From: a virus
Taxonomy: Duplodnaviria > Caudoviricetes
DNA length: 64,000 nt
IMG/VR virus record: IMGVR_UViG_3300035492_000236
Direction: 5' to 3' (one strand)
A program made the translations under genes and the position numbers. Below are positions 46,182 to 52,192 of the stretch, piece by piece. Within the stretch, counting starts at the first letter, position 1. Every line of letters begins with the position of its first letter. The notes under the pieces are model-generated. The model did not search any database, was not told the DNA's origin, and saw nothing but the letters and a program-made list of their open reading frames with translations.

Positions 46182-47468
46182 TTAACTGATGTGTAGTTCA
46201 GGTTTATACTCGGCCACTGCCAGCTCAATGCCGTGCATAGACGACATATACGCGAGCATGATGCCGGAACCCAGTTCAGAGATTTCTGCTGCGGCAGCAC
46301 TAGGATCGCGCGCCAGCGCCTCCACCGCACAAGCCGAACAGTAGTCATCGTCTGGCTGTTGACATAAGATAGGGCGACGTAGGCCCACCACTTTATTAAA
46401 GTGACGTTCAGCACTTTCTTCCGTCAGGCGCTCAGTGGTGCTACCAACCACCACGTTCATGTTCTGATATGGCTTCCAATTGTCCTTGGTGAGGATGAAC
46501 TTATGCACTCGCTTGGTGCCACAGTCCCCCTTGATAACCCGTAGACTTTGGAACATTCGCTGCAGCAAGGTAACCTTCTCACCACCCTTAGCGGTGTTCA
46601 GGCCTCGGTCCAACGAACCTTCACGGGTGGAGTTGTACAGTTCCGGCAGGTGCTTCATGTCCCAACCCTCGTTCAGGGACTTCGACACGAACGTGAATCC
46701 ACCATCCTCGCGGAAGGCACTTTCCACCCCCGACATCACGAACATTTTCTTTCGCTTAACCGAGTAGTCTTTGCCGCTGAGGTAGAAGCCGGCGGCGTCA
46801 TCGTCTTTAAGCCATTCCTTATCAAGCGCCACCAATTCATCTTGGATCTTTGCAATGACCGACTGATCATTCAACTGGTCCTTGTATTTCTCAATGAGTT
46901 CGTCACGGCGCTTCGCCATTTCAGGGTGTGTGGTCAGGGACTTGGTTGACCCAGTCGGGGTAATGTACGGACACAGGCTGGTCAGTTCAAACATGGCCTT
47001 AACAAACCGAGACACCTCACTGGGGTAAAATTTGTCAGGTGCCCGGTCTTCCTCACGCTCAGGCTCATCGACCACGCGATTGATAAACTGCTTAACTAAA
47101 TCACCGGCCGTCACCTTGTGCTGAAAGGGGAGCTTCTTCCCAAACGCATAGTGCACTACCATATAGTTAAACAAGGCCCGGCCATAGGTTGTTTCCATTT
47201 TACTGTCGTGGTTAGGCAGATCGCCAACCTCAAAGGTGGCTAGTCCACGGTTATCCAAAATAGGGTCCGTGCTGGGAATGCCCTCTAGCTTCTCCCATGA
47301 CTGCTCTGGCGTGTACCAATACACACCGTCGGATCGGTAGTCGACATCGTACGGTTCGAGCTCGTGATCGGTCGGCAGTCGAGACACAGAAAATAAGCTG
47401 ATGCGCCATGCCCGCCACTTCCACCGGTCAGCCAGGCAGCCGCGGACAAACAATTCATGCGGTGTCAT
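46182..47468 (-). CDS. Virion RNA polymerase beta' subunit, C-terminal part (phiKZ gp80-like)
   Basis: Start moved to ATG 47468. REGSLDRGLNTAKGG (bridge helix), GDCGT, CQQPDDDYCSAC zinc site and trigger-loop-like LAYMSSMH. Confidence 0.85.
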   Translation of the reverse strand: MTPHELFVRGCLADRWKWRAWRISLFSVSRLPTDHELEPYDVDYRSDGVYWYTPEQSWEKLEGIPSTDPILDNRGLATFEVGDLPNHDSKMETTYGRALFNYMVVHYAFGKKLPFQHKVTAGDLVKQFINRVVDEPEREEDRAPDKFYPSEVSRFVKAMFELTSLCPYITPTGSTKSLTTHPEMAKRRDELIEKYKDQLNDQSVIAKIQDELVALDKEWLKDDDAAGFYLSGKDYSVKRKKMFVMSGVESAFREDGGFTFVSKSLNEGWDMKHLPELYNSTREGSLDRGLNTAKGGEKVTLLQRMFQSLRVIKGDCGTKRVHKFILTKDNWKPYQNMNVVVGSTTERLTEESAERHFNKVVGLRRPILCQQPDDDYCSACAVEALARDPSAAAAEISELGSGIMLAYMSSMHGIELAVAEYKPELHIS

Positions 47469-48318
47469 GCTCCACATCCTCAGTAGGTTGGTACAAAGTC
47501 TCGAGGGCGGACAGTACCGCTTTAGAGATCGCAATACGCTCAGGCAAGTCGTCAGTATGTGACAGCAATTCGACGTAATGATCAACCATCTCGCTTGCTG
47601 CAAGCAGGGTGTCGTTCTTCACATACAGCAGGCCGGTAACTGCTAACGCCACCTCCTCTTGGTAGTTAGCGGAGGTCAGCCGGTCAATTTCGATCTGCGT
47701 TAACAATTCGTCCATAGGGGCGCTGTAGCCACCGTCATCTAACACGTCAGTGATCACATTGTCTGGATACGTGGCGATGAAGGTGGCGGCACGCGTGGCT
47801 GCCTCTGCGTCCACATGATCGATGGTGGTATCGCTAAGCAGTTTGGCCACTAAGATACTGTGAACAATTCGCATCAGTTTCGGACTCACTGCTTCGATGA
47901 TATCAATGTAGTCGCTGTCGAAACCACCTACCACAAACGCCACCAAGTTCGCCATCATGATCGACTCAGGTTCGCCCGATTCATAGATAGCCATCAGCGA
48001 CTCATAATCGTCGAATGCTTCCAAGTCGCCCAACAACACTTTGATAACTTCCAGTGCAGCGCGTGGTGATGCATACACAGACTCAGTGCTGACAGTTACC
48101 CCTAATCGCATTAGCAGTTCAGCAGCACCCCCACAGATCAGACTTTCGGTAGGGAGAATGATGTCCGCTACGGCGTCATTTTGCGCCACTAACGTAAGCA
48201 CTTCATTCAAGTGCTCTTCGTAACCGACGTCATACAACTGTTCGGTCAGTTCCATTAAAACCTCAACTCGCTCGGGACTGCGCCCATCTTCCAATATAGA
48301 TCGGTATAACTCGAGCAT
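47455..48318 (-). CDS. Hypothetical protein (phiKZ gp78-like by synteny)
   Basis: 287 aa, acidic and helical; overlaps the start of the RNAP gene. Confidence 0.65.
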   Translation of the reverse strand: MLELYRSILEDGRSPERVEVLMELTEQLYDVGYEEHLNEVLTLVAQNDAVADIILPTESLICGGAAELLMRLGVTVSTESVYASPRAALEVIKVLLGDLEAFDDYESLMAIYESGEPESIMMANLVAFVVGGFDSDYIDIIEAVSPKLMRIVHSILVAKLLSDTTIDHVDAEAATRAATFIATYPDNVITDVLDDGGYSAPMDELLTQIEIDRLTSANYQEEVALAVTGLLYVKNDTLLAASEMVDHYVELLSHTDDLPERIAISKAVLSALETLYQPTEDVEHDTA

Positions 48319-48445: not shown

Positions 48446-48907
48446 ATGAGAAAAAATGAACAGCGCAGGCCCCGCCCGTCAAGAAAGACTCGCAACAAAA
48501 GCTACCGCAGTCCTGAGCCAAGACTGGACATCGATAGCAAAGGCGCACACAACCGTGAGGTTATGTTTCAATTGCGTGCATGTGATGAGTTTATTGATCA
48601 AGTCAATGGAACGTTACAGGTCTTTGCTAAACGTATTGACCGCGATGGTCGGACCGCACTGGGCGAGTACCACAACGAGTGTGTGACCATCCTCGACACT
48701 ATCAACGATGACCTGCACGATTTCTGCAGCAAGCTCAAGCCGCTGCAACAACAGGCCAAAAGTTTCATGGATAACCCGCAAGGTGAAGCCTGGGAATGGA
48801 CCATGAATACTCATTCCATCTGTGAGTCGCTGAACCTGCTCCGCGACCAGTACGTTACCCTGTATATGGCCAACTACAACTCCCTGATGGATCAACTCGA
48901 TCGCTAA
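48446..48907 (+). CDS. Hypothetical protein (153 aa)
   Basis: AAGG RBS, basic N-terminus, helical. Confidence 0.6.
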   Translation: MRKNEQRRPRPSRKTRNKSYRSPEPRLDIDSKGAHNREVMFQLRACDEFIDQVNGTLQVFAKRIDRDGRTALGEYHNECVTILDTINDDLHDFCSKLKPLQQQAKSFMDNPQGEAWEWTMNTHSICESLNLLRDQYVTLYMANYNSLMDQLDR

Positions 48908-48921
48908 CTGAGGATACATTA

Positions 48922-50433
48922 ATGTCTAACGAAGAAGTGCAGCACACCCACCCTGCCAATCACGAACCGTTGCCGACCGAAGTCGAAAACACCCCGCCTG
49001 CTGAATCCGTCAATGTTGAGACGGCTGCATCGGGAACGGTGGACGACAGCGAGCCTGCACTGGCCGAAGTGGCGTATGAGCAGACCGCCCCTGCCGTTGA
49101 AGAAGGTGTCGCCAAAGGCAATCTCCAGTACCAGCCACAACTGACGTTCTACAACTACGGCATGGAAGTGCTAACTAAATACACCCTTAATGCCGACATC
49201 GACACTGAAGTGGTCAGTAACTACACGCCGGAACTGATCCACACCGACAAGTTGACCGAAGCAGACACGTACTGGTCGCAACACATTCGTCGTGAAGGTG
49301 GTGCGGTAATTGGACCCCGTCGTCCCAGACTGGCCTCTACCGGTGGTACCCTGACAGGCATGGCAGCCATCGAGTCAATTCGTCGGGTGGCTGGCGCTGG
49401 CGGCTCCCTGACCTACGAACTGGCCCATAGTGGCCTGGTAATCACAGTTACACCGGTCAAAGAAACCGAGATGATCGATTTCGAGTTTGATCTCACTCGT
49501 GCTGCCACTCAAGTTGGTCTGTCCACCACCGGTCTGCTGCTGAACGGGCGCAGTGGTGTGTTCAGTGAAGCCCTGGTGAACTTGGCGCTGGATCACATCA
49601 CCTCGTGTAACTTCAAGGAAGTGGGTACTAACTTCCGAGCACTTGCTGACTACATCGATCCGCTCGACTATGGTGCATTAATCTGGGGTATGTTGGCCAC
49701 CACCTTGGCCAACGGCCATCCGTGGGAGTTTGCCTGCACCAACGGCGAATGTAAACATCGCCGGGAAGCGCTGGTGAACTTCTCACGGATGTTGTGGGTG
49801 AACCGCAATGGCCTGACCGAAAAACAGCAGAACATGCTGGTCAAGTTCAGTAACAACATCACCGCCGCCCAACTGACTGAGTACCGTCAGGAGTTTACTG
49901 ACAAGGCCGCCACCTACACCATGAGTACAGGGGTGATCGTCCACTGGCAACGGTCTACTCTGGCCGAGTACCTGCGTCAAGCCAAAGAGTGGGTCTCTGC
50001 CATTGAGAAGCAGTACAACACGGCCATGACCAACTACTTTACTGAAGCGGAACGGCGCCGTTACCTCAATGGGCAAATCCAGGCCCGGCGGATGCACAAA
50101 TACATTCACCAGGTCGGTAAGATCATGGTTCCGTCTGCGGTCGAGGGTGAGTATGATGAGATCGTCGATCGCGATGCAATTCATGCGGTTCTGCTGGAGC
50201 TGACTGCCATTACTCCCGACATCCGTGAGTTTGAAACTGCTGCCGTGGACTACATCGAATCCAACACTGTACAAGTGGTCGGCTATCCTGGCGTGAAGTG
50301 TACCAAGTGTAACCATGTGCCGAAGGGCCGCGGTGGTGAATTCCGTAGTATCGTGCCGGTCGCGGTGGATCGGGTGTTTTTTACGTATGTTCAGCGGAAA
50401 ACTTTGGCCTTGATGGATCTGGCGACCGTATAA
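48922..50433 (+). CDS. Tail/baseplate assembly chaperone-like protein with Cys motifs (phiKZ gp77-like; T4 gp26-like features)
   Basis: VTPVKETE, LDYGALIWG, FACTNGEC and KCTKC; ends DRVFF over a T6 run. Confidence 0.55.
   Translation: MSNEEVQHTHPANHEPLPTEVENTPPAESVNVETAASGTVDDSEPALAEVAYEQTAPAVEEGVAKGNLQYQPQLTFYNYGMEVLTKYTLNADIDTEVVSNYTPELIHTDKLTEADTYWSQHIRREGGAVIGPRRPRLASTGGTLTGMAAIESIRRVAGAGGSLTYELAHSGLVITVTPVKETEMIDFEFDLTRAATQVGLSTTGLLLNGRSGVFSEALVNLALDHITSCNFKEVGTNFRALADYIDPLDYGALIWGMLATTLANGHPWEFACTNGECKHRREALVNFSRMLWVNRNGLTEKQQNMLVKFSNNITAAQLTEYRQEFTDKAATYTMSTGVIVHWQRSTLAEYLRQAKEWVSAIEKQYNTAMTNYFTEAERRRYLNGQIQARRMHKYIHQVGKIMVPSAVEGEYDEIVDRDAIHAVLLELTAITPDIREFETAAVDYIESNTVQVVGYPGVKCTKCNHVPKGRGGEFRSIVPVAVDRVFFTYVQRKTLALMDLATV
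50376..50382 (+). other. Candidate -1 ribosomal frameshift site G_TTT_TTT
   Basis: In-frame GTG TTT TTT. The -1 frame is open from 50349 to 50828 with no ATG/GTG/TTG before 50481. Confidence 0.6.
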
Positions 50434-50480
50434 CTGCGGAAACGTTTTCTACACGTTGGGATAAGAATGGGCAAGACGCG

Positions 50481-50828
50481 GTGGCTGAACTGTTGGCCAC
50501 CGATACTCACCAGGTCGAGGACGGCATTCAGTATACCGAGAGTTTGCGCTACTTGCGTGAAGCTTATGACGAAAACTTCCGGCTGGAAACCGGTCCAACC
50601 GGGGTGGAGATGTGTGACAGTGAGCACGCGACCCGCGGGTCGCTGTTTGAATACTGGATGGGTAAGTTCGTACAGTTTCAAATCGCAACGTTATTCAACA
50701 TCTCCTTGAACGAGTACCTAGACCAACCACGGTTTCGCATACAGGCAATGAACCGCATCGCTGAACAAGACAGTCACAGTGAGGTGGCAACTGCCAATCG
50801 GCTAGCTAGCCAGCTCGGTAAGAAGTGA
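50481..50828 (+). CDS. Chaperone C-terminal extension-like ORF (probably made mainly as a frameshift fusion)
   Basis: GTG start without an SD sequence; IATLFNISLNEYLDQP resembles gpGT / T4 gp51-type segments. Confidence 0.55.
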   Translation: MAELLATDTHQVEDGIQYTESLRYLREAYDENFRLETGPTGVEMCDSEHATRGSLFEYWMGKFVQFQIATLFNISLNEYLDQPRFRIQAMNRIAEQDSHSEVATANRLASQLGKK

Positions 50829-50844
50829 CAAACAAGCGGACATC

Positions 50845-50876
50845 AGGTATGGGCCTAAGCCCATACCTACTTTTTT
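50845..50876 (+). terminator. Rho-independent terminator
   Basis: AGGTATGGGC/GCCCATACCT stem then ACTTTTTT, followed by GTGC. Confidence 0.85.
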
Positions 50877-50881
50877 GTGCA

Positions 50882-52192
50882 TTAAACGTTACCTGTATTT
50901 GTTCGGGGGAATTGTCTATCACTACCCCAAATAATTCTCACCGCACCAGCGCCATGACCGACATATGTAAATGCAGTAGTGTATCCACTTCTGAATCTAA
51001 CACCACCAGCGCCAAATTTAACTTTTATTGGGGAGCTACCTGCTGTTCCCTCTTTACCGCCCGAACCATCACTCTTAGGTTTTGGGCCACCAACCCCGCT
51101 GCTTCCAGCCCCAAGGATGCCAACACCGCCGCCACAATACGGTGGGTAATAATACCGATCATTCCTGTAGCTTGGTTGATATATGGCGCCCGCAGAACCA
51201 CCACCGCCACCGGCGCCACTACTTGAAGTACCAGCAGTGCCAACAACAGTAGAACCCAATGAAGTAGGATCCTGGACACCATGACCACCGTATCCACCAT
51301 TTCCGTAATAACCGCCAGCACCGCCGCCACCGCCACCGCTGTCCCGGTTTATTCCGCCCTGACCGCCGTCACCACCGCCACATTCTTGATGACCGATAGG
51401 CCAAGTTGTAGATAGCAATGTTACTGTGCCGTTCGAAATAGAACTATTTCTCTTAGCGTTATCGCTGCTAGCTGCCCCGGAAACTATAGTAAGTACCTCA
51501 CCTGGAGTCACTGGGATGTCGTTACGCCAGCGCAAATTACCGCCGTATCCACCATTCCCGTTATTGGAACTTGACGCCACCTGCCCGCCGGCAACTACAA
51601 CCGCACTAATCAAATGGCAACCGTCGGGCACTGTCCATTTAAGAGTGCCAACGGTTGTGAATTCAATCTGCCCAGGAAGTATCGACGGTGGCACCTCGAA
51701 CCCGTTTAACTCTCGATAAGCTATCCGCGAATCAAGCGATAGTTCAACAACTATGGGTACGCTACCCTTGAAAGCCGTGTTGTTGCTTTTTGCGGCAAAT
51801 TGCAAACTACCATCGATAGTAACCACAACATAATAGCTCTGGTCAGTATATAAATTGTACTTACGAGTAATCTCCTGCATGATAAGGTCAGGGTCAATAC
51901 TCCCGTCTTCTTTAACGTCGACTTCACGAATTTTTACCATTACCTCGCTGAATAAAGTTGCCAAATCGATACGATTAAAATAAATCGTTGCGTAAGGAAC
52001 ATCTAGCCCCTCCACGACGCCTACTCTACGTACTCGTAATTCGGTGTTAAATTGATCCCCTATCGACGTTATGACGGGGAGGTTCTCACCTACCACCAAT
52101 TCGGTTTCGCTAAAGTCGGTCTGGTTAAAGTAGTTAAAGAGCTCCCTAACCAACACATTGGGATGTTTACTTAGATCAACGTTGTATTGCAT
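50882..52192 (-). CDS. Virion anchor module fused to a glycine-rich tail-fibre-type domain
   Basis: N-terminal ~165 aa paralogous to 3315..4613. FTTVGTLKWTVPDG...VVVAGG...IPVTPGEVLTI and GGGGG runs are typical of phage Gly-rich domains. Confidence 0.8.
   Translation of the reverse strand: MQYNVDLSKHPNVLVRELFNYFNQTDFSETELVVGENLPVITSIGDQFNTELRVRRVGVVEGLDVPYATIYFNRIDLATLFSEVMVKIREVDVKEDGSIDPDLIMQEITRKYNLYTDQSYYVVVTIDGSLQFAAKSNNTAFKGSVPIVVELSLDSRIAYRELNGFEVPPSILPGQIEFTTVGTLKWTVPDGCHLISAVVVAGGQVASSSNNGNGGYGGNLRWRNDIPVTPGEVLTIVSGAASSDNAKRNSSISNGTVTLLSTTWPIGHQECGGGDGGQGGINRDSGGGGGGAGGYYGNGGYGGHGVQDPTSLGSTVVGTAGTSSSGAGGGGGSAGAIYQPSYRNDRYYYPPYCGGGVGILGAGSSGVGGPKPKSDGSGGKEGTAGSSPIKVKFGAGGVRFRSGYTTAFTYVGHGAGAVRIIWGSDRQFPRTNTGNV

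Follow-up and report, generated by a model that had tools for sequence, protein, structure and literature searches.

A probable programmed -1 frameshift at a conserved T-run in the gp77-family gene of phiKZ-like phages

The phiKZ gp77 homolog and the small ORF that follows it very probably form a single recoded locus, from which a short and a long protein are made by a -1 slip at a run of Ts. We examined this locus in a 64,000-nucleotide stretch of phage DNA (the window) and in its relatives. A sequence-only reading of the window had already taken the two ORFs for one locus joined by a -1 slip, and our comparisons support this interpretation and extend it to the whole family.

According to the model that we favor, most ribosomes would read the upstream ORF (ORF1) through to its TAA and produce a 503-aa protein. 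A minority would slip one base back while the Phe-tRNA occupies the run of Us (G UUU UUU A, 50376-50383), and would continue in the -1 frame to the TGA at 50828 to give a 635-aa protein. Residues 1-487 would thus be common to both proteins, and the long form would end in a C-terminal domain of its own, 148 residues long and mostly helical.

The slip site and its surroundings in the window

All features described here lie on the + strand. ORF1 (48922..50433), whose frame-0 product is the 503-aa short form, matched phrog_4585 at 6.5e-93, and its tblastn match in phiKZ was PHIKZ077. This bears out the initial assignment to phiKZ gp77; of the gp77/gp76-type pair that had been suggested, the gp77 half stands while gp76 does not, as the partner in the current phiKZ record is PHIKZ076.4. 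The gp77 family comprises 1,159 protein clusters, and four of its cysteines (C272, C277, C460, and C463 in ORF1) are nearly invariant. An AF2 model of ORF1 had a pLDDT of 87.6 and contained a helix, residues 482-502, that crosses the slip site. In this model it is a C-terminal helix of the short form that packs on the body of the protein; in the long form it would be interrupted after F487 and substituted. A search of phage records for DNA nearly identical to the locus found none. Searches for related loci with ORF1 or an alignment of its clade returned zero loci from viral contigs and genome contigs and two loci only from metagenome contigs. The relative P0002 is 70% identical.

The slip site, GTG TTT TTT ACG, lies at 50374..50385, with the T6 run at 50377-50382; its residues in ORF1 are V485 F486 F487 T488, then 16 sense codons and the TAA. 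The -1 frame is without a stop from 50349 until the TGA at 50826-50828. Read from the T-run, it provides an extension (50382..50828) of 148 codons plus TGA that matches phrog_7580. The earliest ATG, GTG, or TTG in this frame is a GTG at 50481, 34 codons past the T-run. Its Shine-Dalgarno (SD) match is weak, at -3.5 kcal/mol, where 40 long ORFs from the window had a median of -5.85. A slip after F487 yields a computed product of 487 + 148 = 635 aa, reading ...DRVFF-YVCSAENFG... across the junction, and the predicted junction peptide includes ...VFFYVCSAENFG...

The sequence-only reading had described the motif near the end of the 503-aa ORF, the stop-free -1 frame between 50349 and 50828, the lack of any ATG, GTG, or TTG before 50481, and a product of about 635 aa, and on each of these points the sequence and our recomputation agree. 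Its statement that the GTG at 50481 has no SD sequence also holds, in that the match is a weak one. The ORF list, which gives the gene-caller view, places a 115-aa “ORF2” at 50481..50828, beginning with this first GTG; this ORF is unlikely to be a gene in its own right. The DNA from the T-run to the end of ORF1 (50383..50433) would be read twice, encoding the tail of ORF1 in frame 0 and the first part of the extension in frame -1.

A 153-aa gene from the ORF list (48446..48907), at the position of phiKZ gp78, precedes ORF1 and is probably the first gene of its transcription unit. It had no PHROG or NCBIfam match beyond chance-level rows, and a small ORF occurs immediately before the gp77 homolog in all homologous loci, often overlapping its start. 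Downstream, sequence and predicted fold indicate a terminator-like hairpin of 10 bp (50845..50876, -17.8 kcal/mol, followed by T6) that begins 17 nt past the TGA at 50828 and closes the ORF1 unit. The neighbors of the locus are genes for a virion RNA polymerase subunit, a head-protein-like product, a Gly-rich virion-protein-like product, and a helicase, and this synteny is repeated in relatives. The caveat raised at the outset, that the locus is not beside the tube or tape-measure genes, is confirmed by these neighbors.

Conservation and constraint among relatives

To the window we added 30 related loci, for a total of 31 from about 20 genera, including phiKZ, SPN3US, RAY, Goslar, RSL2, Bacillus phage AgentSmith, and BONAISHI. 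A run of T5 to T8 was present at a homologous, nearly invariant Phe-Phe motif in all 31, a count that includes RTH11, whose run is one T too short for its frames (its record has T7, though the frames require T8). The run was T7 or T8 in most loci and 5-6 T in nine of them, among which are the window, with T6, and its closest relatives, with T5. The heptamer U_UUU_UUN was present in 20 of 28 relatives.

In the 31 loci, the -1 frame stays open for 146-178 codons past the T-run, through the small downstream ORF. Summed over 28 loci, the part of this frame that runs from the T-run to its first ATG, GTG, or TTG comprises 1,222 codons, none of which is a stop. Within the ORF1 homologs, by comparison, the -1 frame has a stop rate of 0.095, a mean of one per 10.6 codons, and the nearest -1 stop upstream of the run is a median of 35 nt away (minimum 8 nt). 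The remaining two frames of the “intergenic” stretches contain 29 and 42 stops in 392 codons. The stop-free stretch that follows the T-run therefore far exceeds chance. An open -1 overlap in homologs had been set beforehand as a test, together with retention of the T-run and the search for a conserved independent start of the second ORF; the run was kept in every locus, no stop interrupted the overlap in any of them, and no such start was found.

The -1 frame is also conserved as a peptide. In tblastn searches, Vibrio phages aligned from the T-run onward (2e-25), and in phiEaH2 the alignment spanned both annotated CDSs. The close relatives L024 and L025 have 76 conserved codons without any start codon, and the corresponding start-less stretch is 87 codons in phiKZ and 89 in AgentSmith. 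The position of the first start codon varies between relatives. In some it is near the run (Wellington, 14 codons after it) or upstream of it (RAY, RSL2, and Noxifer), and for this reason the small ORF may be initiated independently in these four phages.

Codon choice at the motif points to constraint on the nucleotides themselves. For the first Phe of the motif, 25 of 25 loci use TTT, in spite of a general preference for TTC: elsewhere in ORF1, RSL2 uses no TTT as compared to 18 TTC, and Xoo-sp14 none as compared to 14. In the window's clade, identical residues of the overlap share identical codons in 100% of 17 columns, a codon identity of 1.00 versus 0.48 in 300 upstream codons. It is raised in the overlap of three further clades as well. 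Selection on the T-run at the nucleotide level is thus shown by sequence comparison. The peptides of both frames are conserved in the overlap, the zero-frame tail of ORF1 included. Because this tail is conserved too, both the short and the long product appear to be under selection.

Two separate genes are annotated in all of the public genome records that we compared. Among the best 150 of the 1,159 family clusters there was no natural fusion of ORF1 with the -1 domain, nor did one turn up when we looked for longer proteins that carry this domain. The absence of natural fusions among the clusters examined would fit, if only weakly, a need for both forms.

Nature of the shift and competing explanations

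The heptamer of the window, G_TTT_TTT, is not a canonical X_XXY_YYZ site, and the nearest relatives have T5 only (CTT TTT A). As a result, only slippage of a single tRNA re-pairs perfectly: UUU UUU allows the Phe-tRNA to re-pair one base back without mismatch. We searched for elements that could stimulate such a slip. The 80 nt after the site in the window fold with z = -0.34, and RNAalifold on three clades gave weak energies, almost no covariation, and no conserved structure. The GGTGG noted earlier as a weak SD-like element is present at 50364-50368, upstream of the slip site. It is an unlikely stimulator, to judge from its absence in the nearest relatives (L001, L024, and L025). As no stimulator was found, the slip is expected to be of low efficiency. 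The lack of a stimulator lowers the efficiency to be expected, yet the locus may still belong to the programmed -1 frameshift class, since many phage frameshift sites have no stimulatory element.

A second way to reach the same fusion is transcriptional slippage, in which an RNA polymerase, from the phage or the host, slips on the T-run, so that some transcripts carry an extra U and with it a fusion ORF. Polymerase slippage is feasible at T7 or T8, the run found in most loci, and phages of this group encode their own unusual RNA polymerases. The T7 of RTH11 in place of T8 also shows that the length of the run is readily altered in copying or sequencing. Useful transcriptional slippage in bacteria, on the other hand, is known from tracts of about 7-9 or more, and the run is only 5-6 T long in the window and eight other loci of the 31. 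Moreover, the frame of the run is kept such that the Phe codon can re-pair, as is expected of a ribosomal slip. The missing ribosomal stimulator is neutral towards transcriptional slippage. We consider this explanation unlikely and infer that the shift is ribosomal.

Another possibility is that these are two ordinary genes, the T-run being simply the codons of a conserved Phe-Phe and the small ORF starting at GTG 50481. Phe-Phe is indeed conserved at the protein level, the public records that we compared are all annotated in this way, the SD match of GTG 50481 is weak but not zero, and Vibrio phage pVp-JHP1101 has GAGGAG 3 nt upstream of its first ATG. However, two independent genes leave unexplained why a conserved peptide stretch, free of stops and of starts, precedes the first start, as in the 76 start-less codons of L024 and L025. 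The choice of TTT against codon bias, the suppression of synonymous change in the overlap, and the shifting position of the first start among relatives are not accounted for either. This arrangement is therefore highly improbable.

Least probable of all is separate synthesis of the downstream domain from a non-canonical start (AUU, AUA, or CUG) in or just past the overlap, for which there is a precedent in the nested product 26' annotated in the T4 record, which we take to start at an internal AUU, and a candidate in the ATA after the ORF1 stop of the window, L001, and L025; this ATA is replaced by GTA in L024, the conserved peptide and open frame begin at the T-run and not at a shared near-cognate codon, and selection on the T-run is left unexplained.

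Known frameshift systems, function, and significance

The arrangement that a ribosomal -1 slip would create here resembles that of lambda gpG/gpGT, reportedly a -1 frameshift that is conserved in the chaperone genes of long-tailed phages. In both cases the slip lies a few codons before the upstream gene ends, the ORF that follows is without its own start, the short and long forms have their N-terminal part in common, the arrangement is kept despite sequence divergence, and a strong stimulator is not required. In contrast, the gp77-family proteins are 503 and 635 aa rather than about 140 and 280 aa, the slip is on a U-run rather than on G GGA AAG, and the gp77 locus adjoins genes for a virion RNA polymerase, a head protein, and a helicase. 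Neither ORF1 nor the extension had a Pfam match at E <= 1, and a PDB Foldseek search with ORF1 returned zero matches at E <= 0.001. The extension had a sub-threshold protein-atlas row for Phage_TAC_19 (0.81), a score level that is often due to chance. The label “G/GT-type assembly chaperone” from the sequence-only reading is thus not borne out as worded: ORF1 matched tail assembly chaperones of the lambda gpG or P2 gpE type neither in sequence nor in fold, and its gene lies elsewhere than between those for the tube and the tape measure. For the same two reasons, what the locus shares with G/GT is the logic of its expression and not the protein family.

Two other systems share the type of slip. 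P2 gpE/gpE+E' is a tail chaperone of a myophage with a slip in a T-run; here too the phage is a myophage with a -1 slip of Phe-tRNA on a T-run, and the relative pEa_SNUABM_54 has T TTT TTG. There is, however, no detectable homology, and the gp77 gene is much larger and occupies another genome position. In T7 gene 10A/10B, a -1 shift occurs at G GUU UUC. The Phe-tRNA likewise slips on U UUC or UUU close to the end of the gene, a minority of the products carries a C-terminal extension, and the SPN3US clade has GTT TTT TTC. T7 10B differs in that it adds a short extension to a capsid protein, whereas the addition in the gp77 family would be a folded domain, about 150 aa long, that is conserved throughout the family.

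Outside its own family, the best fold-level likeness of ORF1 is to T4 gp26/gp51 (PF12322, phrog_150). A BFVD Foldseek search returned models of T4-like “baseplate hub assembly protein/chaperone” at E 1.9e-4 to 1e-2, with a target-normalized TM of about 0.5 and an rmsd of 7-8 A, a weak to moderate likeness. In the protein atlas, ORF1 had a PF12322 lead at 0.91, and an atlas structure search gave a TM of 0.49 to a cluster with PF12322 in 14% of its members. A gp77 homolog is labelled “T4 gp26 like” in two phage records. Both families have two Cys pairs, and gene 26 also yields two nested products; on the other hand, ORF1 is twice as long, and T4 has two separate genes and an internal start with no frameshift.

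Profile methods did not bear this lead out. By hmmscan, PF12322 had no match at E <= 1 in ORF1 and nine homologs. A six-frame search of five whole phage genomes found no PF12322 at E <= 10, with the controls of that search also silent. The hhalign comparison of gp77 with gp26/gp51 family profiles reached 19% probability over 12 columns, and profile comparison with T4 gp26 and gp51, singly and as a 12-sequence family profile, recovered the CxxC motif only. NCBIfam searches of ORF1 and the extension returned chance-level rows with no link to gp26/gp51, and the -1 domain matched neither T4 gp26/gp51 nor PDB sequences. Modelled alone, this domain had a pLDDT of 58, too poor for a fold search. We found no solved structure of the gp26/gp51 (PF12322) family for comparison. 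VIA-align of ORF1 against the PDB returned helical-hairpin matches (Z <= 5.8 over 50-60 residues), which we judged non-specific. The proposal to search both ORFs by structure against gpG/gpGT and gp26/gp51 therefore had, for ORF1, a divided outcome: there was no match to gpG, and there was a weak likeness to gp26/gp51 that the profiles did not confirm.

The weak, model-based likeness makes an assembly role of the gp77 family plausible. Given this fold likeness to T4 gp26/gp51 and the adjoining virion-protein genes, the two forms may cooperate, in a constant proportion, when the virion or the baseplate hub is assembled, by analogy with G/GT in tails. The virion proteins named in the Goslar cryo-EM text that we searched do not include a gp77 homolog. 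It could be speculated, tentatively, that in nucleus-forming jumbo phages the gp77 family serves as the chaperone for assembly of the hub or the tape measure: an enlarged relative of gp26/gp51 that adopted the G/GT logic independently, with a fixed low ratio of long to short form that is essential for the tail or hub, the extra domain of the long form recruiting a partner. If this doubtful but possible reading were true, the hub “catalysts” of T4 and the lambda-type chaperones would become one functional class.

Full-text literature searches and jumbo-phage papers contained no mention of a frameshift at the gp77-family gene, and the “gp77” named for Goslar, PCH45, and PhiPA3 was in each case a different gene. 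The earlier remark that recoding of the phiKZ gp77 pair seems undescribed is in keeping with this, as no describing paper was found.

Nucleus-forming phages of the phiKZ type are the subject of intense study, in which their core genome guides knock-outs, transposon screens, proteomics, and cryo-EM. If the locus is recoded, the two-gene annotation would be wrong in all of the public records compared. In phiKZ, a single domain of 167 residues would take the place of the 80-aa PHIKZ076.4 and a 219-nt “intergenic” gap. All protein lists would lack a core protein of about 70 kDa, and the long form of gp77 would be the actual target of any mutation or insertion placed in the “small gene”. The family would offer a natural U5 to U8 series with no obvious stimulators that is useful for studies of slippage, and a large, ancient phage lineage would join the short list of conserved programmed frameshifts. 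Recoding would also offer a starting point for working out what this core gene, which has no solved relative, does.

Reading frames at the 3' end of ORF1

ORF1 (503 aa; 48922-50433, plus strand) belongs to a unit that probably begins with a gene of 153 aa, starting at 48446. Near its 3' end, the sequence GTG TTT TTT ACG (50374-50385, plus strand) encodes V485 F486 F487 T488, and a TAA stop follows 16 codons past T488. On the same strand the -1 frame has no stop from 50349 until a TGA at 50828, and its first ATG, GTG or TTG is a GTG at 50481. A slip after F487 would give ...DRVFF-YVCSAENFG..., a product of 635 aa (487 + 148). The sequence-only reading had proposed this site, open frame, first start codon and fusion, and all were borne out by the sequence. 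It had also held that the GTG lacks a Shine-Dalgarno (SD) sequence; a match is present, but it is weak (-3.5 kcal/mol; the median over 40 long window ORFs is -5.85).

The unit ends in a 10-bp hairpin (-17.8 kcal/mol) followed by T6 (50845-50876). The next gene downstream (436 aa; 50882-52192, minus strand) converges on the same region; its product starts with a virion structural protein domain (phrog_2935/1037), and its long C-terminal part is rich in Gly (phrog_4474). The hairpin, a strong one, sits between two convergent genes and could be a transcription terminator for both directions.

Conservation of the T-run and the -1 frame

We compared the junction across 31 loci. Besides the window, these were 23 phage records from some 20 genera, five IMG/VR loci and two relatives from metagenomes with about 45% identity. 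A run of 5 to 8 Ts occurs at the homologous position in all of them, coinciding with a nearly invariant Phe-Phe motif (F486, F487), and the downstream ORF is always in the -1 frame relative to the ORF1 tail and open from the run to its end (146-178 codons). The only apparent exception was Xanthomonas phage RTH11 (OQ790161.1, locus L011:2651-2657), whose record shows T7 although the conserved ORF1 tail requires T8. As deposited, its ORF1 continues for about 70 extra codons in the third frame and the small ORF lies in the +1 frame; with T8 allowed, its three frames are arranged like those of every other locus. Either a homopolymer miscount or genuine length variation probably accounts for the T7.

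Within ORF1 bodies the -1 frame contains 1,421 stops in 15,025 codons (mean open run 10.6 codons); the distance from the last upstream stop to the run has a median of 35 nt and a minimum of 8 nt. Between the run and the first possible start codon, the 28 loci together have 1,222 codons and no stop (naive probability about 2e-53). In stretches annotated as intergenic, the frame of ORF2 (the small downstream ORF, 115 aa in the window) has no stops in 392 codons; the remaining two frames contain 29 and 42.

This start-less stretch is conserved as protein. In tblastn searches with the -1 frame, two Vibrio phages aligned from the T-run residue onward (E 2e-25 and 8e-23) and phiEaH2-type phages aligned across both annotated CDSs. 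The first ATG, GTG or TTG lies 76 codons past the run, within a conserved motif, in two close relatives of the window (L024 and L025), and there are 87 start-less codons in phiKZ and 89 in AgentSmith. Those of phiKZ (NC_004629.1, locus L004:2665-2882) fill the 219-nt annotated gap between PHIKZ077 and PHIKZ076.4, which is stop-free in the -1 frame and encodes a motif, D-x-D/N-G-H-V...F-G, common to Psa21, PS119XW, Noxifer, Viktualia and Xanthomonas phages. Of the conserved -1 domain, PHIKZ076.4 represents just the C-terminal half. Earlier start codons, where present, vary in position among genomes. In Erwinia phage RAY, the annotated gp266 (locus L006:2517-3065) begins before the T-run and shares 135 nt with gp267; this start is an artefact of gene calling in the long open -1 frame.

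Codon usage indicates selection on the nucleotides of the site, beyond Phe-Phe as protein. The first Phe codon was TTT in 25 of 25 loci, although ORF1 prefers TTC elsewhere (TTT:TTC of 0:18 in RSL2, 0:14 in Xoo-sp14 and 3:17 in 2050HW). In the clade of the window, identical residues had identical codons in 100% of cases over 17 columns of the stretch coding in both frames, compared to 48% over 300 upstream codons of similar amino-acid identity. Codon identity was also higher in the overlap in three other clades (0.61-0.68 versus 0.45-0.51). The zero-frame ORF1 tail is conserved too in the window's clade, and no single-frame fused version was seen among the best 150 of 1,159 family representatives or in a search for longer proteins, so both the short and the long product appear to be retained.

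Probable slippage at the T-run

Of 28 loci for which frame data were available, 20 carry the canonical heptamer U_UUU_UUN. In a few loci, among them the window with its G_UUU_UUU, perfect re-pairing is possible for one Phe-tRNA only; the window's nearest relatives read CUU UUU A. No conserved downstream RNA structure was found in the window, where the downstream 80 nt gave a folding z of -0.34, or in alignments of three clades (-2 to -5 kcal/mol, covariation almost absent). The sole structural feature downstream was a small hairpin, invariant within the SPN3US clade. An SD-like GGTGG suggested upstream of the site proved not to be conserved. From these results together, a low-efficiency -1 shift driven by the slippery sequence alone would be expected; many tail-chaperone genes of phages have such a shift. 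On the runs of T7-T8, transcriptional slippage may act instead of a ribosomal shift; it is less likely at the T5-T6 loci, the window included.

The gp77 family and known recoded systems

ORF1 matched no Pfam family; it matched phrog_4585 and phrog_8054, and the small ORF phrog_7580. By tblastn ORF1 was found in 201 phage records, every one below 60% identity, including SPN3US, RAY, Goslar, RSL2, a Bacillus phage and phiKZ, where the match is PHIKZ077, confirming the gp77 assignment. An exhaustive search extended the family to 1,159 clusters. A gp78-like small gene precedes ORF1 in conserved synteny, and beyond it lie a gp79-like head-protein gene, an opposite-strand gene for a virion RNA polymerase subunit and, nearby, a helicase. 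The locus is therefore outside a tail gene cluster, as the sequence-only reading had cautioned, yet among virion-related genes. The RNA polymerase subunit ORF (46182-47603, minus strand) is listed with a TTG start and so shares about 150 nt with the gp79-like gene (47455-48318); its real start probably lies further downstream.

AF2 modelled ORF1 confidently from 108 sequences (pLDDT 87.6, pTM 0.86), as a mixed alpha/beta body. Four nearly invariant cysteines in two pairs (C272/C277, 49735-49752; C460/C463, 50299-50310) suggest a structural zinc site. The slip site lies inside the C-terminal helix (482-502), most of which would therefore be missing from the long form. The -1 domain alone folded poorly (pLDDT 58, helical) and matched nothing known.

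No solved structure matched the ORF1 model. Among predicted viral structures it matched, after its own family, T4-like 'baseplate hub assembly' proteins of the gp26/gp51 type (E 1.9e-4 to 1e-2, TM about 0.5 by target length), and a protein atlas likewise pointed to a cluster with 24% PF12322 members (score 0.91). T4 gp26/gp51 also have two Cys pairs, but hhalign paired them out of order, and sequence profile comparisons did not confirm the relation. We regard homology to gp26/gp51 as about as likely as not. In Cronobacter phage GAP161 (locus L035:901-2191), genes 51 and 26 overlap and point the same way; they are divergent in T4 (locus L031:5803-7229), RB69 and Ac42. In the record of Acinetobacter phage Berthold, the gp51 homolog is called 'tape measure protein assembly chaperone'. 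The Goslar homolog, gp81 as its locus tag suggests, is absent from the text of the Goslar virion cryo-EM preprint, which is compatible with an assembly factor but no proof of one.

No frameshift is annotated at this locus in the public records compared, and full-text literature searches and jumbo-phage papers yielded no published description. The locus shares its expression logic with lambda G/GT, P2 E/E+E' and T7 10A/10B, and to this extent the label of a G/GT-type chaperone holds, but only as a functional analogy. However, it differs from G/GT in protein family, size and genome position, and we do not class it as a tail assembly chaperone. As had been proposed, the two ORFs very probably form one locus with conserved -1 recoding of some kind; the account as a whole, with a shift that would be made by the ribosome, is likely.
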